From positions 4,467-68,466 of the forward strand of contig JBAZFB010000001.1 in assembly GCA_041653595.1 (NCBI GenBank): a stretch of 64,000 bases of DNA. The letters run 5' to 3'. Below the pieces are notes generated by a model. It was not told the origin of the DNA. It did no database searches and saw only the letters and a list, made by a program, of their open reading frames with translations. Every line of letters starts with the position of its first letter. Within the stretch, counting starts at the first letter, position 1. A program made the translations under genes and the position numbers. Source of the stretch: Candidatus Omnitrophota bacterium. GTDB taxonomy: Bacteria; Omnitrophota; Gorgyraeia; Pluralincolimonadales; Pluralincolimonadaceae. Positions 1,823-44,541 of this stretch are shown here, piece by piece.

Positions 1823-2794
1823 TCACGAGGAGTGGCCGCCTGCTATGGTAAACCCAAGCAGTTCCTCCACCATCGATATGAGCAAAGCAGATTGTTTAGA
1901 CATGGCATCGATTACTTTCTTTTGCTCCTCATTAAGATGGCCATATGACCCGTCCTGAAGTAACGATATGTTCCCGCTGATCACTCCCAGCGGTGCGCGC
2001 AGTTTATGCGAGATAAGAGTTAAAGTATCCTGTTTTAGAAATTCCTCGCTGCGCGCTGCGGTAACATCACGCAAGATAAAAACAATGCTTAACAGCTCTC
2101 CGGCGGAATTTTTTATCAGGTCCAAATTCGCCTCTAAATATAATGCCTCCGCCGTTTCTGATTTTTGGCGTACAATATCAAATGTTTTATGCGCAATCGT
2201 TAGATCCGTAAGCGCTTCTTTACTTATAGAAACAGAATAATTCTTAAATAGCGTTTCGACCAAATTGACTTTTGCCGGATCGGTAATATTTAAGTAATTT
2301 AAGATCGCCGCATTGCTGTCTTTGATCAGGTAATCCGGGCTGCAGATGGCAATGCCATCGCTTATTTTATCGACCACTGCCTTGAATTTCTCTTTTTCAT
2401 CCAACTGCCGGAGATAATAACTTATCTTGAGTATGGACTTGACTCTTGCTAATAGTTCAACCTTATCAAAGGGCTTGGAGATAAAATCATCGCATCCTGC
2501 CTCAAGGGCTTTTACCTTGTCTTCGGTCTCCCTAAGCGCGGTTACCATGACCACCGGGATAAGGCGTGTCTTTTCATCGGCGCGCAATTTTTCCAGCACT
2601 TCTATGCCGGACATCCTGGGCATCATTATGTCCAGCAGGACCAGATCGATTTGATCGCCGGAAAGTATTTTCAGCGCTTCTTCACCGCTTGCCGCCTTGA
2701 CAATCTCATAACCCTGCGGAACAAGATACGCTTCGAGAAGTTCAACGCTTTGGAGCTGGTCATCAACAGCTAAAATTACCGGTCTGTCTTTCAT
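1823..2794 (-). CDS. Response-regulator receiver–PAS–HisKA protein with no HATPase_c catalytic domain
   Basis: N-terminal receiver motifs (ILAVDD…LVLLDIMMP…PVVMVTA), a central PAS-like region, and an H-box ISHKLRAPL. The ORF ends right after the dimerisation/phosphoacceptor region with no N/G1/G2 boxes. Confidence 0.72.
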   Translation of the reverse strand: MKDRPVILAVDDQLQSVELLEAYLVPQGYEIVKAASGEEALKILSGDQIDLVLLDIMMPRMSGIEVLEKLRADEKTRLIPVVMVTALRETEDKVKALEAGCDDFISKPFDKVELLARVKSILKISYYLRQLDEKEKFKAVVDKISDGIAICSPDYLIKDSNAAILNYLNITDPAKVNLVETLFKNYSVSISKEALTDLTIAHKTFDIVRQKSETAEALYLEANLDLIKNSAGELLSIVFILRDVTAARSEEFLKQDTLTLISHKLRAPLGVISGNISLLQDGSYGHLNEEQKKVIDAMSKQSALLISMVEELLGFTIAGGHSS

Positions 2795-2797
2795 CCT

Positions 2798-3166
2798 CTA
2801 CCCCTTGATAAATTTACTGATTTCTTTCGCGAAAGTGCGCGTATTTATCGGCTTGCCTATAAATCCGGAGTTAGATATGTCTTTTATCTCTTCCCTGCCT
2901 TCTGCCATTACGGAAGCAGTTACAAAAACAATGGGAATATCGCTTGTCTCTTTGTCTTGACGCAATATCCTGGCAGCTTCGCTACCGCGCATATCCGGAA
3001 GCCGCACATCCATAATTATGACATCCGGTTTTTCTTTCCTGACAATGGCAATTCCGCCGGAAGCATCTTGAGCTACAAATACTTCGAAGCCGGCGACCTC
3101 CAGGAGGTCTTTTTCCAGCGTCAGATTATTCACGTTATCATCGACAATTAAGACTTTCTTCCCCAT
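2798..3166 (-). CDS. Single-domain CheY-like response regulator
   Basis: LIVDDN…DVIIMDVRLPDM…IVFVTA receiver motifs across 122 aa. Confidence 0.85.
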   Translation of the reverse strand: MGKKVLIVDDNVNNLTLEKDLLEVAGFEVFVAQDASGGIAIVRKEKPDVIIMDVRLPDMRGSEAARILRQDKETSDIPIVFVTASVMAEGREEIKDISNSGFIGKPINTRTFAKEISKFIKG

Positions 3167-3167
3167 C

Positions 3168-4442
3168 TCACACCGCCTTTCTGGATATAACCGGCAAAGT
3201 AAACCTGACTTGAGTGCCTTTATTTAGCCCCTCTGATACTACGGAAAACTTCCCGCCATGCAGCTCAACCAGCTTCTTGGAGAGCGGCAAACCGAGACCG
3301 GTTCCCTCAGTTACCCGGGAATATGGAGTATCGACACGGAAAAACCCTTCAAATATTTTCCCCATGTTTTCAGATGCGATCCCGGCCCCCGTATCCCATA
3401 CCACTATTTCTATCTCGGAATCAACCTTTCTCGTAGAGGCCCGCATTCCTATTTTACCACCCTCGGGAGTAAATTTTACCGCGTTTGAAAGCAGGTTGTA
3501 AAGTATCTCTTTTACCCTGAGCTCATCCGCCTCAATATTCGGCAGATCTTCGGTTATTTCAAGCAACATTTGAAGCTTCTTTTTACTGACCATATCCGCT
3601 ACCAGCAGTGAAATGTCATTTAACAGGCTTTTCATGGGTAAGCTGGATAATGCCAGCTTCATCTTCCCCGCTTCAACTTTTGACATATCAAGTATCTGAT
3701 TTATCAGTAAGAGGAGATGTTTTCCGCTGGTTAGAACATATTCAACGTATTTTTTCTGCTTCTCATTAAGCGGCCCGAAAGTCTCGTCGTATAATATCTC
3801 GGAGAAACCGTTAATGGAGTTAAGCGGGGTCCTGAGCTCATGCGACATATTGGCCAGGAACTCGGATTTTGCCCGGGTGGTACGTTTTAACTCGGCGGCC
3901 AACTCCTGTAACTCTTCATGGGCTTTTTCCAGGCCTTTTTCTATCTCCCTGCGCCCGGTAATATCCTCGATAGCCAGGAGGATGATCCGCTCCTTGCCAA
4001 GCGCTCTTTCAATTTGCCGGGCATTCAAAAGCATTATGCGCCTGCCGATGGTAGTAAAATCGTGTTCAACCTCATAGTTATCGAAGGTTGCCTTTTGGGG
4101 AAGGATGGTTTCCAGCAGTTCCCGCAGCTTGGGGATATTCCACTGTTTATTGCCCAGGTCATAAATAAGTTGTCCCACGGTCTCTTCGGGTTTTACCTTA
4201 AAGACATCATAGAAGGAGCGGCTGACGGAGACCACCCTTAGATCTTGATCCAAAGCGATTAGGGATTCACGCACGGTGTTGATGATGCTCTCGGCATAGT
4301 TGCGGGCATCTTGGGCTAATCGCTCTGTTTTCTTACGCTGTTCAATTTCTTGGTGAAGCTTCTTAACATTCCTTCTTTCTGCGACGGTACGGATTCCTGC
4401 CTGATTCTTACATAATTTTTTGTTTTTCTTTATATCTTTCAT
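3168..4442 (-). CDS. Cytoplasmic sensor histidine kinase (coiled-coil/PAS–HisKA–HATPase_c); start probably at the internal Met (MKDIKK)
   Basis: H-box MSHELRTPLNSI, G2 box GTGLGLPLSKKLVELHGG, and no transmembrane segment. The start was trimmed to remove overlap with the GT4 stop at 4456. Confidence 0.82.
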   Translation of the reverse strand: MKDIKKNKKLCKNQAGIRTVAERRNVKKLHQEIEQRKKTERLAQDARNYAESIINTVRESLIALDQDLRVVSVSRSFYDVFKVKPEETVGQLIYDLGNKQWNIPKLRELLETILPQKATFDNYEVEHDFTTIGRRIMLLNARQIERALGKERIILLAIEDITGRREIEKGLEKAHEELQELAAELKRTTRAKSEFLANMSHELRTPLNSINGFSEILYDETFGPLNEKQKKYVEYVLTSGKHLLLLINQILDMSKVEAGKMKLALSSLPMKSLLNDISLLVADMVSKKKLQMLLEITEDLPNIEADELRVKEILYNLLSNAVKFTPEGGKIGMRASTRKVDSEIEIVVWDTGAGIASENMGKIFEGFFRVDTPYSRVTEGTGLGLPLSKKLVELHGGKFSVVSEGLNKGTQVRFTLPVISRKAV

Positions 4443-4455
4443 GGTTTCGCCTCTT

Positions 4456-5814
4456 TTAAAGTTTCCCTTCCTTGGTCGTGCCATTAGATCGGGGGTCTTC
4501 GCTCTTTTCCGTCGTATCTTTGATCTTTACGGGTTCTGTTTTCTGAAAATTTCCTTCGAACACTGATGTGGCAACGGACCTGATATAATTGCTGTAAATA
4601 TCCCACTCCGCTTTCATGCGCCACTGGAAAAGATACCGCGAACTGTTTTTCTTGCCCAGGGAAACAGATTTTCTTGATCTGATTTTATCATAAATTTCCA
4701 ACATGTGTTTTGCGGCAGACTTAATCGGGTATTTCTGTACCGTCATTCTTACGATCTGCTTCATGGCTAGCAACTCTTCAGGAGTCCGGGATAAAGACCA
4801 GGCAAGGGCATCAACAAAACTTTGCTGGTCCATCTCATTGAGCAACCGGCCGTTGTGGTAATCTTCTACGACTTCCCGCGCTCCCGGAGCATCCAATGCT
4901 ACCACCGGAACCCCTGCCGCCATGGCTTCAATAAGAACGATCCCTTGCGTTTCGCTTAATGAAGCGAACGCGAAAACATCCATGGCAAAATAAGCATCAA
5001 CCAGATGCTGATACTGCAAAACTCCGGTTAAATGTAACCTTTTTTCAAGGCCTGCCTTCACAAAGGCGTCCTTGATCATTTTTTCAGATGGCCCTTTGCC
5101 AACGATAAGGGCATGGACCCTTGGATCTTTTTTTAATAATTCGATCATACAATTTGTCAGAAATTCCAGATTCTTTTCCGGAGACAGCCGCCCGGCATGG
5201 CCGACTACTTTAGCATCTGGAGGGATGTTATTCCGCTGGCGAAAAGCTTTTCCATCGCCTTTTGAAAAACGTTCCGCGTCTACCCCTGTCGGGATAACCT
5301 CCATGGGGGTCTTAACACCTCTTTTAAGTAAGATATCCTGCACGCTTTCGCTGGGCACAATTACCTGGTCCACCAAATTGGAATATCCGGCGGCAAGCTT
5401 GACCATAAATCGCTTCACTCCCTCATTGTGAACCGGCCAATCATGCACGTACTGCTCAAACATACAGTGATAAGTAAATACAAGCGGTATGGCGTGCTGT
5501 CGACTGAGCCGTAATGCAAAATCTCCCATGAAAAACGGGCCGTGGCTATGCACAATATCCGGCACGAATTCTTTCATGTATCGCTTTAAGAGCCTAGAGA
5601 TCGGAAAATTAATGGAAAAAATAGTCCCCCTAAATTTTTGGATGGCCGGAATCCGGATAACGCCCGGTTCCTCTGTCGGCGCCCCCCCAAAGGCAGGAGT
5701 AACGATCAAAACCTCATGCCCTAAACTTCTAAATGCCTCGCTAAAAGAATAAACCGATTGCTCTAACCCTCCCACCATCGGAAAATAGGTATTCGTCATC
5801 ATGAGAATATTCAT
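4456..5814 (-). CDS. GT4-family glycosyltransferase (retaining GT-B fold)
   Basis: The EX7E region SETQGIVLIEAMAAGVPVVALD and the overall GT4 pattern. The start overlaps the stop of the upstream gene by 1 nt. Confidence 0.85.
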   Translation of the reverse strand: MNILMMTNTYFPMVGGLEQSVYSFSEAFRSLGHEVLIVTPAFGGAPTEEPGVIRIPAIQKFRGTIFSINFPISRLLKRYMKEFVPDIVHSHGPFFMGDFALRLSRQHAIPLVFTYHCMFEQYVHDWPVHNEGVKRFMVKLAAGYSNLVDQVIVPSESVQDILLKRGVKTPMEVIPTGVDAERFSKGDGKAFRQRNNIPPDAKVVGHAGRLSPEKNLEFLTNCMIELLKKDPRVHALIVGKGPSEKMIKDAFVKAGLEKRLHLTGVLQYQHLVDAYFAMDVFAFASLSETQGIVLIEAMAAGVPVVALDAPGAREVVEDYHNGRLLNEMDQQSFVDALAWSLSRTPEELLAMKQIVRMTVQKYPIKSAAKHMLEIYDKIRSRKSVSLGKKNSSRYLFQWRMKAEWDIYSNYIRSVATSVFEGNFQKTEPVKIKDTTEKSEDPRSNGTTKEGKL

Positions 5815-7271
5815 TATTTATCCTTTAGTTCTATGAGCGCTTTCCTGGCCGCCACGCATATCGCGTCGTAATGATCTTGCGCGCCCATGGACAGCCCTTC
5901 TTTTTCCAGATCTTCGGGGAGGAGCGGCTTGCCGAATCTCACCCTGATCGGGTGGCGTTTGGGATACTTTGCCGTGCTGGGCCATGCCTCATAAGCTCCT
6001 TCTATAGCCACAGGCACAAGCTTTGCTCCCGTCTCCTTAGCCAGGATACCGAACCCTTTTTTAAATTTCCCGACTTTGCCGGTAGTACTGCGCAACCCTT
6101 CCGGGAAATAACACAAACCTTTACCGCGTTGTAATACTAAATAAGCGCTGCGCAGCGCCTCCAGAAAATGCGTTGAATAATCAAATGGAATAAGTCTTTC
6201 CATTTTTACGATATCCCTTAAAAAACGGGATTTTACAAACGGCCTAAAATAATACGGTATGAATAAGAAGTAAAACATTTGCAGCACCGGCCTGCGCGGC
6301 AGGCAAGCGTTAATGGCAGGCCCGTCAAGATCGCTCGTGTGGTTTGGATACAGGATATAAGCCCCTTCTTTCGGCACGTTCTGTTCTCCTTCTGACTTAA
6401 TACTGAAAAACAATCTGAAGATCAAACAATCTATGGCTGTTATGCTGAATCTAAGCAGCCAGGCGAAAAAACCGGTGCTGAATTCGAGCGCTCCCAGATG
6501 CTCTTCTTTCGGAAGGACTTGTAAATGTTTTTTCCAGTAGTCCGGACTTAAAGGTAAACTTTTATCCTCCTCCGGGCGGATGCCTTTTGCTCCTTTTAAC
6601 GCATCCTTTATCCCCAGAATGAGGTCTTTTACAATAAAGGCCCGCGAGATCGCCTCATCTTTTATATCGGCGCTAAAAGCCAGCTCAAGGCGCGAAGCAA
6701 GCTCTATCCTGCCTAATGAATCTACGCCAAGGTCCAGCTCCAAAGAATCCTCAAGTATTATCGGTCTTTTAATACCGCTTTGCTCCTTTAGGCATTTTAA
6801 TATTTTTATGCCGGTCCCGGATCCTATCAACAGTTGGTCCGCGGCCGTTAGCTCCCCCGTTACCGGAAGAGCGCCTTCTATTCCTGCCCTCACCCTAGGC
6901 TCATATATTTCCTTGATCGCATTTCTATCTAACTTACCAAGCAGGTCATACGGTAGATCATCAAGCGTAATAGTAAAACCTTTAAGCCTTTTATAAATAG
7001 GGAGCGATGGCAAGACATTATCAAATCTCTCCTTAATGGCTAAATGCAGGTTCACTGAGGCGAATTTCCTGAAATTATCAAGATCCGGCCGGATGATAGC
7101 CCAAAGAATTTTGGATCCCTTTACATCATCCATTCCGGAGACTGTAAAGACGCACATCTCTGTAATAGGGGCGGCCTTTTTATAGAACTCCTCGATCTCT
7201 TCCGGGTAAATTTTCTTCCCCGACTTCAATATGATAAACTCTTTAAATCTGGCCACAAGGTCTTTTATCAT
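5814..7271 (-). CDS. Carrier-protein (ACP-like)–PlsC-type acyltransferase carrying only the C-terminal subdomain of an AMP-binding enzyme at its N-terminus
   Basis: N-terminus matches the AMP-binding C-terminal subdomain (…KIYPEEIEEFY…). Phosphopantetheine-attachment motif LELDLGVDSLGRIEL. PlsC motifs NHTSDLD (HX4D) and FPEGLRS. Truncated paralog of the 911-aa protein at 14860-17595. Confidence 0.75.
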   Translation of the reverse strand: MIKDLVARFKEFIILKSGKKIYPEEIEEFYKKAAPITEMCVFTVSGMDDVKGSKILWAIIRPDLDNFRKFASVNLHLAIKERFDNVLPSLPIYKRLKGFTITLDDLPYDLLGKLDRNAIKEIYEPRVRAGIEGALPVTGELTAADQLLIGSGTGIKILKCLKEQSGIKRPIILEDSLELDLGVDSLGRIELASRLELAFSADIKDEAISRAFIVKDLILGIKDALKGAKGIRPEEDKSLPLSPDYWKKHLQVLPKEEHLGALEFSTGFFAWLLRFSITAIDCLIFRLFFSIKSEGEQNVPKEGAYILYPNHTSDLDGPAINACLPRRPVLQMFYFLFIPYYFRPFVKSRFLRDIVKMERLIPFDYSTHFLEALRSAYLVLQRGKGLCYFPEGLRSTTGKVGKFKKGFGILAKETGAKLVPVAIEGAYEAWPSTAKYPKRHPIRVRFGKPLLPEDLEKEGLSMGAQDHYDAICVAARKALIELKDK

Positions 7272-9931
7272 TTACCCGCCTCATATTTCAATTCAATAGA
7301 ATTTGTTGCGGGTGTAATTATTACGCTCTTAAAACCGGGTAATCGGATATCGATCGGCGGTTCTTTCGCAAGCCATTGTCCGCGCCATTCGACAAGGATA
7401 TTTTCCCCTCGTAGTTTTATGGAAATTTGAATATCCCCAAAACTTGTCGGCGCGGGGCCAAACGCGATCGTCTGGTTTTTCTCCAGCCAGGCTCGCGGGA
7501 TCCCCGAACATAAAATTAATCGGTTGCCTTCTTCGCGCACAAAACAATTCCTTATCATTAAAACCCATTCCGCCGCGGCCCAGACATGCTGCCCGTCTCC
7601 CATACATCCCCCGCCTGTACGCGGATGTACCGACTCAGGCCATTGTCCTGTTGGCGAAGCCAATTTAGCCACTGCTGTCATCAAACCAAAATACCTGGGA
7701 TCACCTGCGCGCAAGAGCGCCTGTGATAAATGTAACGTAAGGTAAGGATTGATCCCTGAATGGGTCATGTCATGAAAAAAACCGCCGTGGACTAAACAAT
7801 TTTTCATTAAATAATCGGCTGTATCTAAGACCCTTGGATCGTTATGCTCAAAAACTCGAAGCGGATAGCTGGCGACCAAAGAGCCGATCGCTCCCGAATC
7901 TAAACGGCGATAAGGAGAGGCCGGTATCGCGGGTCTTTTTAAACGAACTTCTACTTTCTTTAAACTTTGATCTATGCTCTCCAATAATGCCTGCGATTCC
8001 GTTTCAAAATGAGCGGCCTCATCATTATCCTTATAAGCAGCGCACAAAAAGGCCGCTGCTTTCAATCCCGCAACCGCCCAAAAGTCATCCCAGTAATAAA
8101 AATCATTCGGCCCCAAATGCTCAGCGCTAAATCCGGACGGCAATAAACCTGCGTGAGGGTATGGCCCATTGGCGGGCAGTCGTTTTTTATAGATCCACTT
8201 GCCCGCTTTATAGATCGATTTTCCCCATTCTTTAGGCGGGAGATTTCCTGTCATCTCACAATACCGACGCATTATCCACAATGCCTCGCCGTTAGAATCC
8301 CATTCTCCTTCCTGAGAGAGGAAATAACCTTGGGCTGTCTGACGGGAGCGGAAACAATCCAATGAGCGCCGGACACGTTCCTTTAACCCGACGCATAGCA
8401 AACCATGTAATATAAAAGCGGCATCGCGAAACCAAAACCGCCGGTAAATATAAGGCCCGGGATAAACTTCCTTGGGAGAATGCAAAATCATGGTGCGGAT
8501 GGCAGCATCGTAAAGGAACTGAAAATCTTTATCGGGGATCTGCAATGAACACGCGCCCTGGAGGCTTTTCTTCCACGCAAGCTTCGCAGTTTCCCGGCGG
8601 CTGGAATAGGAATCTTTTTCAATTTTATTCTTAGTTAAAGGCACAGAAACGGTAATTTCTTGCGGTTCTCCCGCTTTCAATATAAAAATGGCCGCAGAGG
8701 TGGCCATGCCGACTTTACATGAAATTTCTTTTTCATCTTCCTTGGCTGACAAGCAGCTATAAACATCTCCTCGCTGATAATCTGAAAATACGCATCGATC
8801 CGGAGGTTTATCAAAATATACGAAGTTTTCTCGATTTACTTGCCAGCCTGACGAGCCTTCGAGGAGAGTAATATTATTTATAAAACTCACGCCTTCAGGG
8901 TTATAAGGCCTGAGAGAAACTACTAACTGCGCATTAACAGAAGCAGAACCTCTGATATTAACCTGGCAGATCGGCACTTCGGCTGAACCGGTAACTTGCG
9001 CATTTAATTGAAGCTTTAATTGCTCGAGACTGAATTCTGTAATCACGCAAAGATTGTCATCGAAACACAGTTTTTGCGATACATTTGGATTGCGCGACGG
9101 GATCAACGGGTCCCCCTCTTTTGGAATGATCCAAACATCAATAGACCAACCGTCATAACGGGGAGTAACAAGGCCGCAAGGATCTACAATAGGAAATTCG
9201 GTGCTGTCAGGAACGCCCAAAGCGGTCCAATTTCTATGTGTAAGATTAATTTGAGTTAATGAAAATGACCGCGGGATAAAGGCCTCGCACTCCGGATCAT
9301 ATTGGCATTCCACCCAATAAGGCCAGATCCAATCAAGGTTATGCTGAATGGCTATGCTATTGATCAGGCCCCGGGCATGCAAGACCACGCCTGAACGCAA
9401 TAGTTCAGTCGGAATCGCCACCTCTGAGGGTTGCGTGAAATTCTGTAATTGAGAAATAAATTTAATCGGGTCTAAAAACCCCCGCCGGCGCGCGACGGTC
9501 CTGACTATGAATTTTAACGGTGACCATTTCCATTGCGCAAAACTAAACTTTTCCTTCGATAAAGTCCTGAAAACCCACCATTTAAAACAAACAAAGGTAA
9601 ATATACCTGTTAATATCGTGGCAATGATCAAAGCTAAAAAAACAGCCCCGGGCCGCACATTGAGAATGGTTTGATTTGTAAAAACATTAATTCCCAAAGC
9701 TAAAAAATTAATCAGCGTATACCGGCCAACCTCAGCGTACGATTGTTGGTTGTGTTTAAACGTCCAAAATTTATTAAGCAAATACCCGACAATGCCCGCG
9801 CACGTAAAGGAAATCCCTTTAGATATGCTAAAAGACAAAAAATGAAATAAAATATAATAGACGCTAAAGTCTGTCGCATTGACGATAGTCCCTGCGATTA
9901 AAAACCGGATTATTTCTTTTTTAGTCTTCAT
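7268..9931 (-). CDS. Fusion of an N-terminal GtrA-like 4-TM domain to a large six-hairpin (alpha/alpha)6 glycoside-hydrolase-like domain (GDE_C, GH63 or GH15-like superfamily)
   Basis: N-terminal approx. 120 aa: IRFLIAGTIVNATDFSVYYILF…LLNKFWTFK, the GtrA pattern. C-terminal approx. 750 aa carry W-x-RD-xxF-type motifs (FWFRDAAFILHGLL) and GDGQHVWAAAEW. ATGA overlap with the downstream gene. Confidence 0.62.
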   Translation of the reverse strand: MKTKKEIIRFLIAGTIVNATDFSVYYILFHFLSFSISKGISFTCAGIVGYLLNKFWTFKHNQQSYAEVGRYTLINFLALGINVFTNQTILNVRPGAVFLALIIATILTGIFTFVCFKWWVFRTLSKEKFSFAQWKWSPLKFIVRTVARRRGFLDPIKFISQLQNFTQPSEVAIPTELLRSGVVLHARGLINSIAIQHNLDWIWPYWVECQYDPECEAFIPRSFSLTQINLTHRNWTALGVPDSTEFPIVDPCGLVTPRYDGWSIDVWIIPKEGDPLIPSRNPNVSQKLCFDDNLCVITEFSLEQLKLQLNAQVTGSAEVPICQVNIRGSASVNAQLVVSLRPYNPEGVSFINNITLLEGSSGWQVNRENFVYFDKPPDRCVFSDYQRGDVYSCLSAKEDEKEISCKVGMATSAAIFILKAGEPQEITVSVPLTKNKIEKDSYSSRRETAKLAWKKSLQGACSLQIPDKDFQFLYDAAIRTMILHSPKEVYPGPYIYRRFWFRDAAFILHGLLCVGLKERVRRSLDCFRSRQTAQGYFLSQEGEWDSNGEALWIMRRYCEMTGNLPPKEWGKSIYKAGKWIYKKRLPANGPYPHAGLLPSGFSAEHLGPNDFYYWDDFWAVAGLKAAAFLCAAYKDNDEAAHFETESQALLESIDQSLKKVEVRLKRPAIPASPYRRLDSGAIGSLVASYPLRVFEHNDPRVLDTADYLMKNCLVHGGFFHDMTHSGINPYLTLHLSQALLRAGDPRYFGLMTAVAKLASPTGQWPESVHPRTGGGCMGDGQHVWAAAEWVLMIRNCFVREEGNRLILCSGIPRAWLEKNQTIAFGPAPTSFGDIQISIKLRGENILVEWRGQWLAKEPPIDIRLPGFKSVIITPATNSIELKYEAGK

Positions 9932-10030
9932 ATCAGTTTTAAAGGGAATTCCTCCTTATGGCCGTCATAATACCGCCGAACGCCCCCGCGAATCATTGCC
10001 GGGGGGCGTTCGTGAGAATCTAGTCCTCAG

Positions 10031-10201
10031 CTATTTCTTTTTGCCGAGAAAAAAATACAGCACCATGCCGATAACGGGCAAAAAGAGTATCAGGATGATC
10101 CATAATGCCTTTTTGCCTGTCTCCATTGAACTTTTTACTGCATCAAGGATGGCAATAATATCTAGAACCAAAACAACTAGCCCTACTAGCATGCTTCCCA
10201 T
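10031..10201 (-). CDS. Small (56-aa) membrane protein with a PLDc_N-like domain; absent from the supplied ORF track because it is shorter than 60 aa
   Basis: A GGAGGA ribosome-binding site is followed by ATG. The translation MGSMLVGLVVLVLDIIAILDAVKSSMETGKKALWIILILFLPVIGMVLYFFLGKKK fits the PLDc_N (cardiolipin-synthase N-terminal) family pattern. Confidence 0.5.
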   Translation of the reverse strand: MGSMLVGLVVLVLDIIAILDAVKSSMETGKKALWIILILFLPVIGMVLYFFLGKKK

Positions 10202-10257
10202 GCGTCCTCCTTTTCCGTCTGCCGATAGGCAGACTTTATTTCCTTAGGTATAGTAAG

Positions 10258-11472
10258 CTATTTTCCCTCCGCCACAAGCCCGGGCGGAGCCTTGTGCCAC
10301 TTATACCCTTCTATCGCGTCATCATATCCGCGCTCAAAGAGCCTCTTCATTTCCTGCTTATCGAACATCTCCTGTTGATTAGGCTTAAAATCTTCCGGAA
10401 TATACGCTAAATTGTAATCCCATCCTTTTTCCTTCGCGAATGAGTATAGATTGTACGTGTCCCCGCCCATTTTTGACGCTGTGGCGGTCTCGATCAGGCG
10501 CGAGGTTATCGCAGTCAGATTGTCTTCCACCTGTTTCGAGTGCGGCGACATATAACAACAATTCAGGATATATAACCGCGTTCTGAATCCCTTGGGATCG
10601 ATCCCGGAAGATCGCGCCGCGGATCCCGCGCCTTCCAATAACGGATAAATATAAAAAACCCCTCCGATGACCCCGCCATCGGCATGCATCTCGTCATAGC
10701 GCCTGCCGCCGGCTTCGACTTGAAAATAGACCGGAGGAAGCATAGCCGGATACGAGCATGAGGCCAGGATTATTTTGCGGAATACCTTCACCGAATCCGG
10801 GCCTCCTTTGGATGCAAGCGCTCCCATATCCCATATAACAAACTCCTGAGCATCAAGATCCGAGGTCCCCACATATAGCCTGCGCCCCTTCGCATGCTCT
10901 TTGGCGATCTTCGCCATCAGATCCTCATTTACCATATCATCTATCTTTTTAGAGAACAGGGATGAGCTGTTCACGGAATTTCCGAATAGGATGCTAAAGA
11001 TGCCCTTTTGTTTCACCACGTCTTTGGTCGATATCGAGGTAAACAGGTCCGCAAGCTGGTCTTCAGATTCTTTTCCTGAAAACACGGCAATGGCTAGGAG
11101 CGACCCGCTTGAGTAGCCTGTAACTATTTTAAATACCGGCCGGGAGCCTTCCTTTGACCACCCTCTCAATAACCCTATACCGTAGGCGCTGTTCGATACG
11201 CCGCCTCCGATAATGAGCGCGGGATAGGTCTTTATACCGTCAACCATATAGTCCGATTTACCTTCTTCTTTAAACGAATCTGCCAGGCTTTTCCGCATAA
11301 AGAGAGAATCGGCCTTATACGTATAGTAGCGTAGATCCGGCATACCGACAACGACGGCCTTCCCGACAAGATTTTCCGGTACGGCATGCCGCACATGGGC
11401 GCAACCTGATGATGCCAGGAAGCAGGATATTGTCACCAGCGCATAAATAACCTTACGATATCGACTCTTCAT
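10258..11472 (-). CDS. Patatin-like phospholipase, lipoprotein
   Basis: GGGVSNSAYGIGLLRG oxyanion motif, GYSSGS (GxSxG), a DGG catalytic Asp, and a lipobox LASSGC. Confidence 0.85.
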   Translation of the reverse strand: MKSRYRKVIYALVTISCFLASSGCAHVRHAVPENLVGKAVVVGMPDLRYYTYKADSLFMRKSLADSFKEEGKSDYMVDGIKTYPALIIGGGVSNSAYGIGLLRGWSKEGSRPVFKIVTGYSSGSLLAIAVFSGKESEDQLADLFTSISTKDVVKQKGIFSILFGNSVNSSSLFSKKIDDMVNEDLMAKIAKEHAKGRRLYVGTSDLDAQEFVIWDMGALASKGGPDSVKVFRKIILASCSYPAMLPPVYFQVEAGGRRYDEMHADGGVIGGVFYIYPLLEGAGSAARSSGIDPKGFRTRLYILNCCYMSPHSKQVEDNLTAITSRLIETATASKMGGDTYNLYSFAKEKGWDYNLAYIPEDFKPNQQEMFDKQEMKRLFERGYDDAIEGYKWHKAPPGLVAEGK

Positions 11473-11479: not shown

Positions 11480-12874
11480 CTATGGGATCATTATTCCCGA
11501 ACGGATGATTTCTGCGAATTTTTCTGACGATGGCCGTATTATTCGTTCCTGCGTCGTATAGTCCACCCCTATCAACCCAAATCGCGGGACAAACCCTTCG
11601 TTCCATTCATAATTATCCAAGAGCGACCAATAAAGATAACCGATGACAGGGGCCCCCTCTTCCATCGCCTGCGCCACAGCCTTAAGATGCTCTACGATAA
11701 ATGCCACACGCTCGGTATCATCGTTGGTAGTAATCCCGTTTTCTGAAACCAAAAGGGGCAATTTGTACCGCGAAAATTCTTTAAGGAACATATACAATCC
11801 CTTCGGATAAATTTCCCATGAAAGAAAATTATATTTACCTGAATGACGGAACTGTTCTGCGGCTTCGCGCGCATTACCTGAAATTTCCGGGAATCCAAAC
11901 CCGCGGCTGGTGACAAAAACCCGCGTGTAATAATTCAAACCTATAAAATCCAGGGTTTTTCCTCTCGGCAAGTGAACATAGAAAAATCCTAAAATACAGG
12001 CTCTTCCCTGTACCAAAGCCTGGACAAATAATCGGTTAAACATCAAATCGCAAGAACCTGTCGCAACCCGGTCCATTAACGAATAGCCCGATGAAGCCTG
12101 GAATACGAGCACGCTTTGGGCAATCCCGACCATAGGCACTTCCCAGCCTTTTTGAGCATAGGTCTCTTTGATCTTTTCATACGCCAGGACATGCCCCAGA
12201 AGTAAATTTTTGAAAACTTTTAATGTTTTATCCGTTGATTTTTCTCCCGGCGGCCATTCGCCGCTCATATATCCCCTGAAGGCGTGGACAACCGGCTCAT
12301 TCAGCGTTATCCAATAATGGACATCGCCTCCGAGAGCATCGGTCACTTTCTGGGCGTATCTGGCAAATAGTTCCGGGGTCTTCTCTGAAAGCCACCCTCC
12401 CTGGTGCGCCAGCCATACGGGAACTGTAAAATGATACAAAGTCACAACAGGCTCTATCCCCTTTGACTTAAGCGAATTGATGACCTCGCGATAATGATCC
12501 AAGGCAGAGGCGTCAAATTGGCCTTCCCGGGGCTCAATGCGGCTCCATTCAATGGAGAAACGGTGGGCTGTGTGTCCTAAAGTCTGGGCAAGCTTAAAAT
12601 CCTCTTCAAAACGGTTCCATTGGTCGCACGCCTGGCCTGAACGAGTTACCGGGGGCCGGGTTTGTTCCCACTCCCACCAATCATTATTAGTATTATTCCC
12701 CTCGACCTGGTGAGAGGAGGTGGAAGCTCCCCATATAAAATCTTTCGGAAATGTAAACTTGTGCGGTACCGTTTTTGTTATTGCCGTTTTATTGATACCG
12801 GCACATCCGCTAAGAAGAAAAACAATCAGCGCGAGGACAATAGAACAACGGCTTTTTTTCGAATGAATTCGCAT
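11480..12874 (-). CDS. GH1 beta-glucosidase, lipoprotein; catalytically intact paralog
   Basis: TFPKDFIWGASTSSHQVEG, ITLNEP (acid/base) and LLVSENG (nucleophile) are all present, plus a lipobox LLSGCAG. Confidence 0.9.
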   Translation of the reverse strand: MRIHSKKSRCSIVLALIVFLLSGCAGINKTAITKTVPHKFTFPKDFIWGASTSSHQVEGNNTNNDWWEWEQTRPPVTRSGQACDQWNRFEEDFKLAQTLGHTAHRFSIEWSRIEPREGQFDASALDHYREVINSLKSKGIEPVVTLYHFTVPVWLAHQGGWLSEKTPELFARYAQKVTDALGGDVHYWITLNEPVVHAFRGYMSGEWPPGEKSTDKTLKVFKNLLLGHVLAYEKIKETYAQKGWEVPMVGIAQSVLVFQASSGYSLMDRVATGSCDLMFNRLFVQALVQGRACILGFFYVHLPRGKTLDFIGLNYYTRVFVTSRGFGFPEISGNAREAAEQFRHSGKYNFLSWEIYPKGLYMFLKEFSRYKLPLLVSENGITTNDDTERVAFIVEHLKAVAQAMEEGAPVIGYLYWSLLDNYEWNEGFVPRFGLIGVDYTTQERIIRPSSEKFAEIIRSGIMIP

Positions 12875-13290: not shown

Positions 13291-13947
13291 ATGTTTAGCC
13301 GTAAGGGAATGGTTTTGGCGGGGATTTTGAGTGCAGTCTTAATTTTCGTATTCGCGCGATCCGGGTTTTGCGTAACGGCGCCCGGTACGGACAAGGTGCG
13401 TCAAGTCTCGGGAGAGATCGTGTGGATCGACCTCAAACAAGGTACATTGCAACTTAGGCAGGAGGGAAACCGCAAAAAAGCGGTTGAGTACAGGATCAAC
13501 GCGCATGACACGTTTGTTACCGATCCGGCGCGCAAGGAATTCCTCACGCTGAACGACCTGCGTGTAGGCCAGGATGTAACATTAGAGCTTCCCGCCGTCC
13601 GCGACTGGAAGATCGTCAGTAAGATAATCGCCGAACCCTTGCCTGTCTTCGAAATAGTTACGGGGGATGTCGTAGCTATAGATACGGAAACAGGGATGAT
13701 GACCTTGCAGGTAATAGGCCGGGGACAGAACGAAGTGTCATATTTCGTATTTCAGCCGGATGATATCTACTATATGAAGAGCCCGAGCAAAGAACCCGTG
13801 CACCTGCAGGTCAAGCGAGGGGACAGGGTAAAAGTTGAATTCCTGCCGGATAGCGGAAAACAGCGCGCGCACTATATAACGCTGATGCCTGCTCCGGCGG
13901 CGGGGTCTACCACGACTACAACGACGACGACTACAACGGTTAAATAA
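13291..13947 (+). CDS. Secreted hypothetical protein with an internal duplicated module and a C-terminal deca-threonine tail
   Basis: A signal peptide, a ribosome-binding site AAAGGAGG before the ATG, two similar segments (GEIVWIDLKQGTLQL and GDVVAIDTETGMMTLQV), and a C-terminus …AAGSTTTTTTTTTTVK. Confidence 0.55.
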   Translation: MFSRKGMVLAGILSAVLIFVFARSGFCVTAPGTDKVRQVSGEIVWIDLKQGTLQLRQEGNRKKAVEYRINAHDTFVTDPARKEFLTLNDLRVGQDVTLELPAVRDWKIVSKIIAEPLPVFEIVTGDVVAIDTETGMMTLQVIGRGQNEVSYFVFQPDDIYYMKSPSKEPVHLQVKRGDRVKVEFLPDSGKQRAHYITLMPAPAAGSTTTTTTTTTTVK

Positions 13948-14859: not shown

Positions 14860-17595
14860 TTATATGCTCCGTTTCCCCTTGAGCTTTATAACCTCTTCCC
14901 TTATGCCAAAGGCTATTGCCTCATATTCATCTTTGACCCCCGATCTTAGCCCCTCTTTCATGAGCTCGCCAAAATCAAAAGGCCTTCCAAAAGTTACTTT
15001 GATCGGATGAGGCCTCGGAAGCGGCTTTGTCCTCGGCCAGGATTCGTATGAACCCGTCATTAATACGGGAACCAGAGGGACATTCAGCTCTTTCGCCAAT
15101 ATCCCGACCCCTTTTTTGAATTCCTTAATATTTCCGTCGATAGTCCTTTGGCCCTCCGGGAAAATACAGATTATCTTGTCATTTCGAAGAACATAAGAAG
15201 ATGCCTGCATAGCTTCCACGAAGTGCATACCCGGATCGATGGGAATGACCCTGATATATTTTACGATATTTCTGATTAAGAACTGTTCGAAATAGGCCCT
15301 GAAACCTACGAAGAAAAGACTCTTTCGTAAACTCGCAGGCATAGAAGCCTCAATGATAAACGCGTCCAGGTAACTGCCGTGGTTGACGCACAGGATGCAC
15401 TTTCCCGTTCTCGGGATATTTTCTGTCCCGAAAACCTCAAGCCGCCAGATCACCCTGAAGACAAGGCGTAAAATTTCAGAGAATAGCAGCATCCCTAAAA
15501 TTGCCATCCGGTTCGGCGCCAGATTGACCTTTTTTATTATATCTTCGGCGGGTTTTTCATTTAAGATCTCATTCCATAGAGCGCGGCTCTTGACCTGCGG
15601 AATGAGCTCTCCCTGGACCCCTTCACCCGGGACCAGCCTCTCTATCCCGAGAATAAGTTCTTTAACGGTAGAGGCCTTAGCCATTACCTCATCCGGTATG
15701 GTAATGTTAAGCGCCTGCTCCAACATCACCATCAGCTCCACGCGGCCCAGCGAATCGATACCTAGATCTAATTCCAGATGATCGGCCGGGGATATCCCCC
15801 TTTTTAACTTCGCATGTTTATTAAGGGCTTCTATTATCCTGCTGCTGACACCGGAAGAGAGCAACCTGAGGTCCTCATCTGTAGCGGGAATTTCCTCCGC
15901 CGCGCCGTCTAATTTTATACCTTTAAGCTCATCCAGATATTTTTTCTTAACTTCATATCTTTTTATCTTGCCTAACCGCGTGCGCGGTATGCCCTCCTTT
16001 ACAATAATAAAGCCCTTGATGCGTTTGTAGGGAGCAAGTCCTTCAGACAGGTTTTCCAGCTCCCACCTGATCGTACTGTTAAGATCGACCTCTCCCTTCT
16101 CGCGGCAATAGTCAGCGTCAGGCACCACTACGGCGGACAGCCTCTCTTCCTCCGTTCCGCCGACGCCAAGGACGCATATTTCTTTAATGTAAGGGCTCTT
16201 GGTATAATGGGATTCTACCTCTTCGGGATAGATGTTTTTCCCGGAGCTTAAAACAATTATCTCTTTCTTCCTACCTGTAATATAAAGATAGCCGTCCTTG
16301 TCTATACGGCCAAGGTCGCCGGAGTAAAACCAGCCGTCCTTTAAAACGCTCGAGGTCTCGTCCGCCCGTTTATAGTAGCCTTTCATGACATTGGGGCCTT
16401 TGATCACCACCTCGCCCATACCCGCTGCGTCGGGACTGTCAATTTTCAATTCCACATCCGGGATCACTCTGCCGACAGAACCGATCTTCGGCTTCTTTAA
16501 CGGGTTGAAAGCTACTACTGGCGATGTTTCGGTAAGTCCGTATCCTTCAAGTATAGTGAAACCTATTTTCACAAGGAATCTCGCCGCTTCTTCATTTAAC
16601 TTTGCGCCGCCGCAGGCAAAAAATCTTAAAGCCCGCCCGAATGGCCGGTGTATTGCCGGCAGGGCAAACCTGCTTAAATTTATTCCGCTAAACCTTCTTA
16701 TTAGCCATAATATCTCTATCAGCCCTAAAAGAGGCATCCTTAACATAAACGGTATCTTCTTTATCTTATCCGATATACTCATATAAAACAGGGAAATGAG
16801 CTGCGGCACGCCTACCAATACCGTTACCCCTGCCTCCCTCATCCGGTCCAGCAATTCATCGCTCCTAATGCTCGAAGTATACGTGACCCCCGCGCGGCAG
16901 AAAAGAGGCGTGATCAGCGTGATCATAAATGGGTAGGCGTGATGCAACGGCAATATCGATATGAAAATATCCTTATCCGAGAAGAGTTTCAGCTTGTCGA
17001 TACTTTGAAAATCAGAGTAAATATTCTCATGCGTGAGCATCACCCCTTTTGGCTTATCGGTGGTGCCTGATGTATAGATAAGCGAAGCGATATCTTCGGA
17101 AAGGACCTCGGGCCATGCGGCGCCTTCAGATGAAGTAAGTTTTACCTGAGACAGGCCTATAAGGTTATCCTTTTGAATATCAAGGTCCAGGATGACGATC
17201 TTGTCCAGCCCTGACTTTATCTTATTAATATTTTTCGCCTGAAAAACGGCATAGGAGACAAATATGACCTTTGCGGCGCAGTCATTGATGAGATTTCCTA
17301 TCTCTTGTTCGGTCAGCTGCGGATCTAAAGGAACGCAGGTAAGGCCCGCAGCCATTATGCCTAAATAGATCACCGCCCATTCCGGACGGTTCTCTAAACA
17401 TATAGCCGCGAAGTCCCCCTTCTTAAAACCCTCTTTAATAAGAAACGCGCCTATCCTCAGGGAGAGGTCTTCTGTTTGCCCATATGTCCATCTCTCCCAG
17501 GCAGGGCCTTTTTTTATCTGAAGGCACACCCTGTCTGAAAACCGGGAAGAAATTTGGGCAAATATCTTATGGATGACCATATCTTCCTTTTTCAT
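14860..17595 (-). CDS. Tri-domain acyl-activating enzyme (AMP-binding)–ACP–PlsC-type acyltransferase (Aas-like but self-contained)
   Basis: AMP-binding motif [16 protein letters not shown]; carrier motif [15 protein letters not shown]; PlsC motifs VNHGSYLD and FPEGQRT. The start was set at MKKEDM, whose ATG overlaps the TGA of the upstream hydrolase (ATGA at 17592-17595). Confidence 0.85.
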
Positions 17596-18359
17596 AGTGT
17601 ACCAAGAAACCATTTTTTTACTTCTGTGACGAATTGCCCGGGATAATCCCGCATTAAGTACTCTGCGTGCGGCCCGTTCTTTATAATGATCATTTTCTTC
17701 GTCCCGCTTGCCTTTTGGTATAGGGCCTCGGAATGCCACGGCCTGATCACCCAATCCCGGCTGCCGTGCATGAACATGATCGGAATGGTGATCTTACCGA
17801 CGTTATCAATGGGCCTCTTCTTAGCCAGCCAGAATGGCCCCGGTCGCACGCCTTTACCGATTTTTCCCTTAGGATCCGATAAAATGTACGCCACGTCACC
17901 TTTCCAGTCAAGGGCCCATACCCAGTAATCAATTCTCGATATATTCGACGGCGCGCTGACACAAATAAAACTATCCACGCGTTTATCATTAGCGAGGAGA
18001 TTAATACTGATGCTTGCTCCCATAGAAAAAGCAACCAACCCGATCTTAGGGTATTGCGGAGCGATAAAATCTAATACCGCCCGTAAATCATTCTCTTCCC
18101 GGCTCGTCCAGGTAAACACGCCGCTGCTTTTGCCATGCCCGCGAAAATCAAACATAAAAATATCGTACTCTCCGCCAAGCGCCTGAGTCAACTGCTGCAA
18201 AAGCAGGCACTGTTTACTATTATAATAACCATGCGCAATAATGATAACGGCGAGCCCGCCATTCTTAAAATGCTGGAATGATATTTTCTGGCGGTCAACG
18301 GTGGCAAGCGTACCGCTGACTACCGCGGGAATAACTGCTTCAAGGCCCGGCGTTTTCAT
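17592..18359 (-). CDS. alpha/beta-fold hydrolase (lipase/thioesterase-like)
   Basis: GHGKSSG and AFSMGAS (GxSxG) motifs; translationally coupled to the downstream tri-domain enzyme. Confidence 0.8.
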   Translation of the reverse strand: MKTPGLEAVIPAVVSGTLATVDRQKISFQHFKNGGLAVIIIAHGYYNSKQCLLLQQLTQALGGEYDIFMFDFRGHGKSSGVFTWTSREENDLRAVLDFIAPQYPKIGLVAFSMGASISINLLANDKRVDSFICVSAPSNISRIDYWVWALDWKGDVAYILSDPKGKIGKGVRPGPFWLAKKRPIDNVGKITIPIMFMHGSRDWVIRPWHSEALYQKASGTKKMIIIKNGPHAEYLMRDYPGQFVTEVKKWFLGTL

Positions 18360-19155: not shown

Positions 19156-19707
19156 TCACATAGGGGGCAAGGAGCTGAAATTGGCATCATCAAAATAGCA
19201 GCACCCCCCTGTCTTCTTTTTGGCAGCCTGGATCACTGCCTTGATCTTTGCTTTAGCGGCGCCTGAGGGCGCAATAACCGCCGGAGTTGATAAAAGCTTC
19301 CAAGTATCGCTGGCGACGGTAAGCGGAGGGCTCTTTATCGGCTCACTTATTATGACGTTATCGGTAGTGCACCATTCTATCTGTATCCACGCTTTAGAAT
19401 CGCCGGAAATAGAGTCGCCGGGCTTGCCTAAAATATAGACGCTCGCTTTATACTGCATGCCGGGAATTATTTTTATGTACTGTTCAAATGATCCGTCTCC
19501 ATAATCCCAAACCCAAGTCTTTCCGGATTGTTTGCCGCTCCTATAGGTTCCCGTATCATATGTGGCGTCGCCGTACAAACCCCATCCGGACGGACCAGCT
19601 TTTTCAAAACCCGGGTTGACAAGCAAATTACCTTGCTCAGCGAACGAGGATAAACCAACAGAGCTCAGGGCAAGGACAAGAAAACAAATAAGACATGATC
19701 TTCTCAT
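19156..19707 (-). CDS. Secreted CBM4_9-like (NPGFE-type) carbohydrate-binding protein, paralog 1
   Basis: Signal peptide then LLVNPGFEKA…; three paralogs occur in tandem; sits directly downstream of promoter cassette copy 1. Confidence 0.6.
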   Translation of the reverse strand: MRRSCLICFLVLALSSVGLSSFAEQGNLLVNPGFEKAGPSGWGLYGDATYDTGTYRSGKQSGKTWVWDYGDGSFEQYIKIIPGMQYKASVYILGKPGDSISGDSKAWIQIEWCTTDNVIISEPIKSPPLTVASDTWKLLSTPAVIAPSGAAKAKIKAVIQAAKKKTGGCCYFDDANFSSLPPM

Positions 19708-19721
19708 CCTTATGTTCCTCC

Positions 19722-19816
19722 TTTTATTTAGCTGGTTTTATTATAGGGGTAATGTCTTGCTATATCAAGGATTTTTGGGTATCAGGGAGGGATTTACTCG
19801 CGGAATTTGAGGCCAC
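19722..19816 (-). repeat. Promoter cassette copy 1 (-35 TTGATA at 19763-19768, -10 TATAAT at 19740-19745 on the minus strand, 17-bp spacer) plus the upstream arm GGAATTTGAG…
   Basis: Read directly from the sequence; about 80-90% identical to the copies at 22255, 25821 and 33681. Confidence 0.55.
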
Positions 19817-19873
19817 TATTAAGAAAATTTTGGGGCAGGGATCTTGGACCCCTGCCCCATCTCTAAACGAAAC

Positions 19874-20464: not shown

Positions 20465-20503
20465 TTAACTATTTCACCTCCTCTCTTTTCTTTATTCTTG
20501 TAT

Positions 20504-20527
20504 GTTTCTGCTCACGAGAGCAGAAAC
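20504..20527 (-). promoter_or_regulatory. 10-bp perfect stem-loop (GTTTCTGCTC-ACGA-GAGCAGAAAC) in the leader of paralog 2, about 35 nt upstream of its start codon
   Basis: Perfect inverted repeat; it shares the core GCTC(A/T)CG(A/T)GAGC with the hairpin at 21162-21189. Confidence 0.4.
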
Positions 20528-20590
20528 ATTAAAAATCTGTCTCTAATATCCTTCTCATCGGGAATAAGATCTGTTGCTTACATTAATATA

Positions 20591-21136: not shown

Positions 21137-21161
21137 GCTTCCCTTCCTCCTTTTTTTGATG

Positions 21162-21189
21162 CCTATGCTCTCGTGAGCATAAACATAGG
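21162..21189 (-). promoter_or_regulatory. Nested stem-loop CCTATGCTC-TCGTG-AGCAT-AAA-CATAGG in the leader of paralog 3, downstream of a TTGACA–17–TAACCT promoter (21187-21215)
   Basis: Inverted repeats read directly; -35 TTGACA at 21210-21215 and -10 TAACCT at 21187-21192 on the minus strand. Confidence 0.4.
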
Positions 21190-21234
21190 TTACCATATAG
21201 GCTTTATAATGTCAAGCCGATTTTATTGCTTTTT

Positions 21235-34642: not shown

Positions 34643-34663
34643 GCAGATCTAATTTTCAATTTT

Positions 34664-44540: not shown

Positions 44541-44541
44541 C

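Follow-up and report, generated by a model that had tools for sequence, protein, structure and literature searches.

The window analysed here is a 64,000-nucleotide stretch of a Candidatus Omnitrophota contig (JBAZFB010000001.1). Its minus strand carries an open reading frame (ORF; Table 1) that starts with ATG behind an upstream AAGGAGG and encodes a protein of 887 amino acids (aa). In this protein a membrane domain of the GtrA family is joined by a short linker to a six-hairpin, glycosidase-fold domain, here called GH15-like after glycoside hydrolase family 15 (GH15). A preliminary description of the same DNA had proposed this arrangement from the letters alone, and Pfam, AlphaFold2 and Foldseek bear it out. 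Databases hold more than 3000 homologues; the best 120 are 71–84% identical over their full length, the named sequences among them all come from Candidatus Omnitrophota metagenome-assembled genomes, and the sole labels they bear are ‘GtrA family protein’ and ‘putative flippase GtrA’. This is a genuine, conserved gene and no annotation artefact. Literature searches on the fusion, on GtrA in Omnitrophota and on an operon of DedA, glycoside hydrolase and glycosyltransferase family 4 (GT4) genes found no description of it, and the combination of GtrA with a glycosidase fold appears to be undescribed. The word ‘unusual’ that was first applied to the architecture needs a qualification: within one Omnitrophota clade the fusion is the standard form, PF04138 being carried by 118 of the best 120 clusters of homologues at 90% identity.

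Table 1. The gene, its parts and its neighbours; positions are counted from the first letter of the window.
Feature	Position	Strand	Basis or relation to the gene
Whole ORF: GtrA domain and GH15-like glycosidase-fold enzyme	7268..9931	−	Pfam, AlphaFold2, Foldseek, homologues
GtrA-type domain, aa 1–122, four transmembrane helices	9566..9931	−	Pfam PF04138, AlphaFold2 helices, invariant residues
Linker, aa 123–136 (TLSKEKFSFAQWKW)	9524..9565	−	low AlphaFold2 confidence; starts of separate-gene orthologues
Trp/Arg-rich conserved N-terminal helical segment of the enzyme, aa 137–235	9227..9523	−	alignment, AlphaFold2
N-terminal β-sandwich, aa 236–440, like bacterial GH15, GH65 and GH94 enzymes	8612..9226	−	AlphaFold2, Foldseek
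(α/α)6 barrel with GH15-like regions, aa 441–797	7541..8611	−	alignment, AlphaFold2, Foldseek
Candidate general-acid region, E604 to D615	8087..8122	−	alignment of 128 sequences; HMMER against 9ju0
E766, candidate catalytic base	7634..7636	−	invariance; motif spacing against GH15
C-terminal β-sandwich, aa 798–887	7271..7540	−	AlphaFold2
Adenylating-enzyme C-terminal remnant, acyl carrier and PlsC-type acyltransferase	5814..7271	−	4-nucleotide overlap with the gene, co-transcribed; conserved position
GT4 glycosyltransferase, near-universal partner of the family	4456..5814	−	co-transcribed, translationally coupled
PAS histidine kinase, receiver, receiver-HisKA protein	1823..4484	−	downstream of GT4; syntenic in many Omnitrophota loci
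Patatin-like lipoprotein (10258–11472) and 56-aa PLDc_N membrane peptide (10031–10201)	10031..11472	−	upstream; synteny
Aas-like acyl-AMP ligase with acyl carrier and acyltransferase (paralogue of 5814–7271), and α/β hydrolase	14860..18359	−	synteny

The N-terminal domain matches the Pfam model PF04138 (GtrA_DPMS_TM) at aa 9–121 over its full length (model positions 1–117 of 117; E 1.8e-14; 54.4 bits against a cut-off of 26.1), which confirms the assignment to GtrA. AlphaFold2 places its transmembrane (TM) helices at residues 2–28, 34–57, 65–92 and 97–120. The size and topology of the family, about 120 aa and four TM helices with both termini predicted to be cytoplasmic, are thus found here. 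A K-x-W-x-F motif occurs twice (NKFWTF and FKWWVF), and both copies are invariant in the fused clade, as are the polar intramembrane residues D21 and N86. The linker to the enzyme module is about 13 residues long. Residues 124–136 form the sole stretch with a predicted local distance difference test score (pLDDT) below 50, and it is precisely at the end of this linker that orthologues encoded by separate genes begin (MWLKWFPWRF...). As to the classical partners of GtrA, no GT2 (GtrB/GtlA-type) or GT-C gene was found across the conserved operon in the loci examined, where the partners are instead a GT4, an acyltransferase, and a hydrolase or a protein with Phosphodiest and Exo_endo_phos domains (PDE-EEP). 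Its sequence puts the protein in the GtrA family, but not in the classical GtrA/GtrB/GtrC system. GtrA-family proteins have been proposed as flippases of lipid-linked sugars, and the mycobacterial GtrA Rv3789 has been argued to be an anchor or recruiter and not a flippase (the latter as cited in PMC12992685).

For the enzyme module, a first AlphaFold2 model built with 35 close homologues had a pLDDT of 67 and left the active-site loops unresolved; it was replaced by a run with 128 sequences, with identity down to 33%, which gave a mean pLDDT of 91 and a predicted template-modelling score of 0.83. In this model a helical segment (aa 131–210) is followed by a β-sandwich (about aa 236–431), a twelve-helix (α/α)6 barrel (aa 442–797) and a C-terminal β-sandwich (aa 798–882). 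The glycosidase-fold similarity expected of the C-terminal half is clear in Foldseek searches of the PDB, whose top five matches are all GH15 (E 7e-18 to 2e-15), with glucodextranase 1ug9 (E 7e-18), bacterial glucoamylase 1lf6 (target-normalised template-modelling score 0.65) and dextran dextrinase 9ju0 among the GH15 matches. These are followed by GH94 and GH65 phosphorylases (E 1e-15 to 1e-12), the cyclic β-1,2-glucan synthase Cgs, and GH116, GH52 and GH78 enzymes, all the matches lying at about 12% identity. With the poorer first model the top of the list had been a mixture of GH15, GH94 and GH65. The module thus has the (α/α)6 barrel with an N-terminal β-sandwich of bacterial GH15 members; the multi-domain six-hairpin fold of GH65 and GH94 is matched as well, at a lower rank. 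Stand-alone homologues share the Trp/Arg-rich helical segment, whose role may be interfacial or one of wrapping. A membrane-binding amphipathic helix in residues 128–175 was considered and is not claimed, as hydrophobic moments there were moderate only (0.15–0.46).

At the level of sequence, searches with the C-terminal 757 aa gave no match in Pfam, even with E values as high as 10, and none in NCBIfam or the sequences of the PDB. The GH15 model PF00723 was matched by one homologue only, over a 30-aa stretch (E 0.047). Profile matches to the PDB were weak (E 0.009–0.13): the family profile reached 1lf6 (E 0.025) and 1ug9 (E 0.08), and the profile of the catalytic domain reached dextran dextrinase 9ju0 (E 0.009), the best sequence-level match. 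Because no Pfam, NCBIfam or PDB sequence model is significant, the module is treated as unclassified and is best called GH15-like, a very distant relative of GH15 and a candidate new family.

The barrel carries five motifs, Y496..W500-x-R502-D503, E543-W-D545..G548, S602-A-E604-H605..W614-D615-D616, H724..N728-P-Y730 and W764-P-E766..D779-G-x-H782-x-W784, and the segments that align are the signature regions of GH15 in retained order (Y..W-x-R-D; E/Q-x-D-G-x-A-L; W-D/E-D/E; N-P-W/Y; E...W-x-x-A-A). The two motifs picked out in the preliminary description, FWFRDAAFI (499–507) and GDGQHVWAAAEW (778–789), are both present, invariant or nearly so in 128 homologues, and correspond to GH15 conserved regions 1 and 5. 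For reference, the GH15 sites in Aspergillus niger numbering are Tyr48, Trp52, Arg54 and Asp55, with the general acid in W-E-E and Glu400 as the base. In a MAFFT alignment to an Aspergillus glucoamylase, FWFRD pairs with TWTRD, setting Y496, W500, R502 and D503 against Y48, W52, R54 and D55, a pairing also given by HMMER. In the same alignment EGEW-DSNGEAL pairs with GSWGRPQRDGPAL (E543-W-D545-S-N-G-E-A-L against Q-R-D-G-P-A-L), and GGFFHDMTHSGINPYLTL pairs with GRYPEDTYYNGNPWFLCTL, the segment from G-G-F-F-H-D to N-P-Y-L-T-L lying against that from G-R-Y-P-E-D to N-P-W-F-L-C-T-L. The GH15 regions recovered by MAFFT with --add were 1, 2, 4 and the last part of 5, while region 3 and the base stayed unaligned. 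A direct hhalign comparison of the family profile with one Aspergillus glucoamylase gave a spurious match of 28 columns only.

Region 3 was instead aligned by HMMER, with the catalytic-domain profile, where GPNDYYYWDD (G-P-N-D-Y/F-Y-Y-W614-D615-D616) lies opposite GPADYSIWED of 9ju0; with W614-D615-D616 against W-E-D, the acid would be an Asp. E766 is a candidate catalytic base, placed by motif spacing: W-P-E766...D-G-Q-H-V-W784-A-A-A is set against the GH15 motifs S-E400-Q...D-L-T-W417-S-Y-A-A, of which MAFFT aligns the last part only, and the distance of 18 from E766 to W784 compares with 17 from E400 to W417 in Aspergillus glucoamylase. Seven of these residues (Y496, R502, E543, D545, E604, D615 and E766) are invariant in the 128 sequences, and W500 and D503 are nearly so (at least 90%). 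Set beside 1lf6, the Arthrobacter glucodextranase 1ug9 and the Gluconobacter dextran dextrinase 9ju0, the module shares the β-sandwich and barrel with GH15 but fails its Pfam model at about 12% identity. It also has an additional helical N-segment of about 100 aa and a C-terminal β-sandwich, has an acid that is probably Asp rather than Glu or has moved to E604, and is membrane-tethered and paired with GT4.

Among close relatives the two halves occur both joined and apart. The preliminary description had suggested a search for the fusion in other genomes, and it recurs in 15 of 21 close Omnitrophota loci, two of the 21 being cut by contig ends; one locus (L009) has the fusion and an extra stand-alone GtrA gene. 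Elsewhere GtrA is a separate ORF immediately upstream of the enzyme gene (L011, L016, L017 and L087), upstream of it with one DUF2062 gene between (L088), or just downstream of GT4 in a locus that also retains a VTT gene (L019). The intervening gene of L088, at 5523–5999 of that locus, encodes a DUF2062 membrane protein and separates the GtrA gene from the GH15-like gene. Such fusion and fission among close relatives is classic Rosetta-stone evidence that two polypeptides act as one unit.

Beyond this clade the stand-alone enzyme is the rule. A HMMER scan of 1.8 billion representative sequences returned 2502 relatives, 485 of them at E < 1e-30; these relatives are typically 750–800 aa long and align from about residue 4. 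With one genome taken per species, the GH15-like family was found in at least 585 species of at least eight phylum-level groups. The species scan covers Omnitrophota, Gamma-, Alpha- and Betaproteobacteria, Desulfobacterota, Planctomycetota, Nitrospinota and Fibrobacterota, with Methylobacter, Marinobacter, Thiohalophilus, Thiobacillus and Bowmanella among the proteobacterial genera; protein searches add Sumerlaeota, Hydrogenedentota, Spirochaetales and Acidobacteriota. Nearly all homologues are annotated ‘hypothetical protein’, and two JGI entries read ‘GH15 family’.

The family almost always adjoins a GT4 gene, and it has such a neighbour in each of the lineages examined. In 54 of 62 non-fused species loci GT4 lies directly downstream, 41–56% identical to the GT4 of the window, and the stop and start codons of the two genes usually overlap. 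A DedA/VTT gene (PF09335) lies directly upstream in 34 loci and overlaps the enzyme gene where the latter begins; for DedA proteins, flipping of lipids or undecaprenyl phosphate is documented. In about 34 loci a PDE-EEP protein of some 800 aa, which has hydrophobic segments, is encoded 3′ of GT4. GT4 itself has two alternative fusion partners: PDE-EEP in Omnitrophota loci L026, L087 (8268–11963) and L088 (8268–12029), giving proteins of 1231–1253 aa, and an α/β hydrolase in other Omnitrophota (L001, L002, L006, L016 and L020). The phosphoesterase is absent from the window and from many sister genomes, which instead have the acyl-carrier and PlsC acyltransferase protein between enzyme and GT4. 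A branch at 33–38% identity still has GT4 adjacent, with an N-terminal PHP-type phosphoesterase on it in two of three cases examined; in L085 (4467–6704) and L086 (4566–7004) this extension is 330–400 aa long and begins, as judged by eye, with a PHP-type motif VDLHVHSKYSDRP...ISDHN. In L061 (12271–13587) and L072 (12213–13604) a VTT/DedA-HAD fusion stands directly downstream of the GH15-like gene at the usual place of GT4. A β-phosphoglucomutase would have been a clue to a GH65-like phosphorylase, but the HAD domain there is phosphoglycolate-phosphatase-like and this lead was rejected. In Marinobacter, VTT and the enzyme are accompanied by EamA and a diacylglycerol-kinase-like gene.

Several lines of evidence bear on the side of the membrane at which the enzyme works. 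Lys and Arg residues are concentrated in three places, namely the N-terminus (3), the TM2–TM3 loop (3) and the stretch that follows TM4 (10 in 40 residues), the other two loops having one each; by the positive-inside rule both termini are therefore predicted to be inside. Orthologues of the enzyme part that are 72–82% identical are encoded by separate genes with their own ribosome-binding site and start, and neither these nor any of the proteobacterial homologues checked has a signal peptide or a hydrophobic or TM segment. The enzyme domain has 18 Cys residues, and its constant partner GT4 is a cytoplasmic nucleotide-sugar enzyme. On these four grounds the catalytic module most likely faces the cytoplasm, an orientation that the sequences argue for strongly. 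This contradicts the earlier suggestion that the domain acts on the outer face after translocation of a lipid-linked sugar. The link to lipid-bound sugars that formed part of the same suggestion remains plausible, given a lipid-acceptor-like GT4, acyltransferases, lipases, and DedA/VTT in other phyla.

Our preferred reading, to which we give a probability of about 0.45, is that the protein is a membrane-tethered, cytoplasm-facing α-glycosidase or transglycosylase that acts with GT4 on the product of the latter, probably a glycolipid. The four-helix GtrA domain, with both ends in the cytoplasm, would bear the catalytic module on its C-terminus. In catalysis the acid would be D615 or E604 and the base E766; subsite −1 would contain Y496, W500, R502 and D503. 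The translationally coupled GT4 would make a glycoside on a membrane acceptor, most likely a glycerolipid, and because GT4 is a retaining enzyme this would be an α-glycoside. The nearest curated families of the GT4 in the window, all below cut-off, are MGlcDAG synthase (the best), GlcNAc-PG synthase, MshA, PimA and LTA-anchor synthases, which take lipid or inositol-phosphate acceptors. The GH15-like module may then trim, turn over or transglycosylate the α-glycosyl head group at the inner leaflet, while GtrA, or the DedA/VTT protein in other phyla, would hold the enzyme at the membrane and bind or flip the lipid. A lipid context is also suggested by the acyl carrier-acyltransferases, patatin, lysophospholipase-type hydrolase and PLDc_N peptide of the window and by DedA/VTT elsewhere.

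A number of points weigh against this proposal. The link to GH15 lies below every curated sequence threshold, and the general acid is ambiguous, E604 and D615 both being invariant. With the linker at pLDDT below 50, the relative orientation of the GtrA and enzyme domains is not confidently predicted. A hydrolase beside the synthase of its own substrate would need regulation to escape a futile cycle, unless the enzyme works as a transferase. Finally, the distant branch lacks a membrane partner and has GT4 with a PHP-type phosphoesterase, and L061 and L072 have a HAD phosphatase; these patterns also fit a soluble sugar-phosphate pathway.

The main rival builds on that last point. GT4 and a phosphatase would make a cytoplasmic α-glycoside, either a compatible solute of the trehalose, sucrose or glucosylglycerate type or an α-glucan, and the GH15-like enzyme would degrade it, with GtrA or DedA only localising the enzyme, exporting the solute or serving an unrelated neighbouring function. 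Characterised GH15 enzymes do act on soluble α-glucosides, some phosphoesterase (PDE-EEP, PHP or HAD) recurs in the module as in pathways of a synthase and a phosphatase, MshA is among the best matches of GT4, and many carriers are halophiles or marine bacteria. We nevertheless regard this as unlikely, since the enzyme is covalently fused or tightly adjacent to a lipid-handling membrane domain, the DedA/VTT gene overlaps its start in 34 loci, the PDE-EEP protein has hydrophobic segments, the window operon includes an acyl carrier-acyltransferase, sister genomes fuse GT4 to a lipase-type hydrolase, and the best curated match of GT4 is MGlcDAG synthase.

The module might also be no hydrolase at all but a transglycosylase like the GH15 dextran dextrinase, or a phosphorylase like GH65 and GH94, that builds or rearranges lipid glycans from a glycoside donor. 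Such a transferase would avoid the futile cycle, and dextran dextrinase, the best sequence-level PDB match, is a transglucosylase; there are also strong fold matches to the GH94 and GH65 phosphorylases and to the membrane-embedded Cgs. GH65 and GH94, however, bind phosphate where GH15 has its catalytic base, and the invariant E766 at the expected base position, as judged by motif spacing, argues against a phosphorylase, as does the kind of HAD domain found in L061 and L072. We consider this alternative improbable. That the GtrA domain is a mere membrane anchor, with no lipid binding or flipping and a fusion that only raises the local concentration of the enzyme, seems quite improbable: the argument made for Rv3789 and the free interchange of split and fused forms speak for it, but the fused clade keeps its polar intramembrane residues and both K-x-W-x-F motifs unchanged, and in other phyla the same place is occupied by DedA/VTT, which is also a family of lipid translocators and no generic anchor. 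The model of the preliminary description, in which a polyprenyl-phosphate sugar flipped by GtrA is trimmed or transglycosylated by the six-hairpin domain on the periplasmic face, can appeal to the flippase proposal for GtrA and to the confirmed fold, but is most improbable in view of the predicted cytoplasmic position of the segment after TM4, the separate and signal-less close orthologues, the 18 Cys residues, the dependence of GT4 on nucleotide sugars and the lack of a GT2 GtrB-like or GT-C gene in the operon.

The glycolipid reading can be taken further. The family could be a new glycoside hydrolase family for membrane glycolipids that forms, with GtrA or DedA/VTT, GT4 and a head-group phosphoesterase, a widespread machine for turning phospholipids into glycolipids that are edited at the inner leaflet before flipping. 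In such a machine the editing might be a nucleotide-sugar-independent transglycosylation, by analogy with dextran dextrinase. We think this extended scheme rather unlikely in its entirety.

Known systems share parts of this arrangement. With GtrA, GtcA and Rv3789 (PF04138; IPR007267) of three-component glycosylation systems the protein has in common the full-length Pfam match, the four TM helices and the family motifs, but it is fused to or lies beside an enzyme, and its partner is a GT4 rather than a GT2 GtrB-type synthase or a GT-C transferase. In the type III dolichyl-phosphate mannose synthase (DPMS) of Pyrococcus furiosus a GtrA-like TM domain is joined to a cytoplasmic catalytic domain, with product flipping proposed (PMC12992685). 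As a precedent it shows such a TM domain on a carbohydrate-active enzyme of the cytoplasm that acts on a membrane lipid, although the catalytic domain of DPMS comes first and is a GT2 transferase, whereas here the order is reversed and the fold is that of a glycosidase. The PlcP-Agt system of marine bacteria strips phospholipid head groups with a phosphoesterase and glycosylates the resulting diacylglycerol with a GT4 (PMC4796936). It resembles the GT4 and PDE-EEP pair, sometimes a single fused protein, that accompanies the GH15-like family; the phosphoesterases belong to different families, PlcP-Agt lacks any glycosidase-fold or DedA/GtrA component, and the likeness is one of logic.

Cgs (8rf0) is likewise an integral membrane protein with a cytoplasmic six-hairpin, GH94-like domain and a glycosyltransferase function, but it is a giant polypeptide with GT84, its six-hairpin domain is a length-controlling phosphorylase and its product is a soluble periplasmic glucan. 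A functional analogy may be proposed with the non-lysosomal glucosylceramidase GBA2 (GH116), which removes the sugar from a glycolipid at the cytosolic face of membranes. This too is an enzyme of a β-sandwich and an (α/α)6 domain, and Foldseek also matched the GH116 structures 9vmj and 8ic6; GBA2, however, is a retaining β-glucosidase of a different clan and associates peripherally without a fused TM domain.

If the preferred reading is right, an uncharacterised glycosidase family of at least 585 species, with no Pfam or NCBIfam model, is a candidate new GH15-related CAZy family, and repeated fusions and operons tie it to GT4, phosphoesterases and lipid translocators of two families, GtrA and DedA/VTT. 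It would open to testing an envelope-lipid or glycoside pathway that is as yet undescribed, would add to type III DPMS a second case in which a GtrA-type domain forms part of an enzyme, and would bear on whether GtrA proteins are flippases or substrate-presenting anchors. In Omnitrophota, none of whose genomes seen here is from a cultured representative, a protein conserved at 70–84% identity would probably have an important membrane function, and the existence of cultured carriers (Methylobacter, Thiohalophilus, Bowmanella and Marinobacter) makes experiments feasible. The architecture as such is not shocking; it is a well-supported lead to a widespread uncharacterised module.

Among the neighbouring genes, the 485-aa protein encoded directly downstream begins with what is left of an adenylate-forming enzyme's C-terminal subdomain (aa 5–124), and is 36–40% identical to the C-terminal half of the 964-aa ligase-acyl carrier-acyltransferase at 14860–17754. 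It looks like a truncated paralogue for which the acyl group must come from elsewhere. The 964-aa ORF has a mechanically assigned TTG start that overlaps the upstream hydrolase gene by 163 nucleotides, and its true start is probably an internal Met. That hydrolase, of lysophospholipase type, is a separate gene in the window (17592–18359) and is often fused to GT4 in sister genomes. The PLDc_N peptide (PF13396, E 4.7e-15) lies between the patatin gene and the GtrA fusion and is shorter than the 80 aa from which ORFs were listed; a GC-rich hairpin (about 9975–10010) follows it, and the peptide is syntenic in L002 and L087. Paralogous GH1 β-glucosidase genes flank the module at 386–1810 and 11480–12874, both on the minus strand; the latter product has a lipoprotein-type signal (...LLSGCAG) and the former a hydrophobic N-terminal segment without cysteine. 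Many sister genomes have a GH1 gene at the syntenic position upstream of the fusion; the patatin lipoprotein, the PLDc_N peptide, the GH1 enzymes and the PAS two-component system are all syntenic. A scan for promoters and terminators did not exceed shuffled expectation and was not used.

Further along the window, the sole plus-strand gene nearby (13291–13947) encodes a secreted protein of 218 aa that ends in eleven threonines, its only family match being a sub-threshold one to CusF-like proteins. Three paralogous small secreted proteins of about 183–201 aa are encoded at 19156–21196 on the minus strand; the middle one (19874–20464) ends in a PEP-CTERM sorting signal (PF07589, E 3.5e-7), and a LacI-type regulator (21235–22233) follows the trio. 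At about 22 kb the G+C content shifts from about 0.45–0.48 to 0.52–0.58, and the first gene beyond the shift (22333–24972) encodes a β-glucosidase with GH3, PA14 and Fn3 domains. RNA genes further on are tRNA-His, tRNA-Arg and tRNA-Pro (34565–34854), a transfer-messenger RNA with the tag ANELALAA (44190–44541) and tRNA-Leu (47155–47241).

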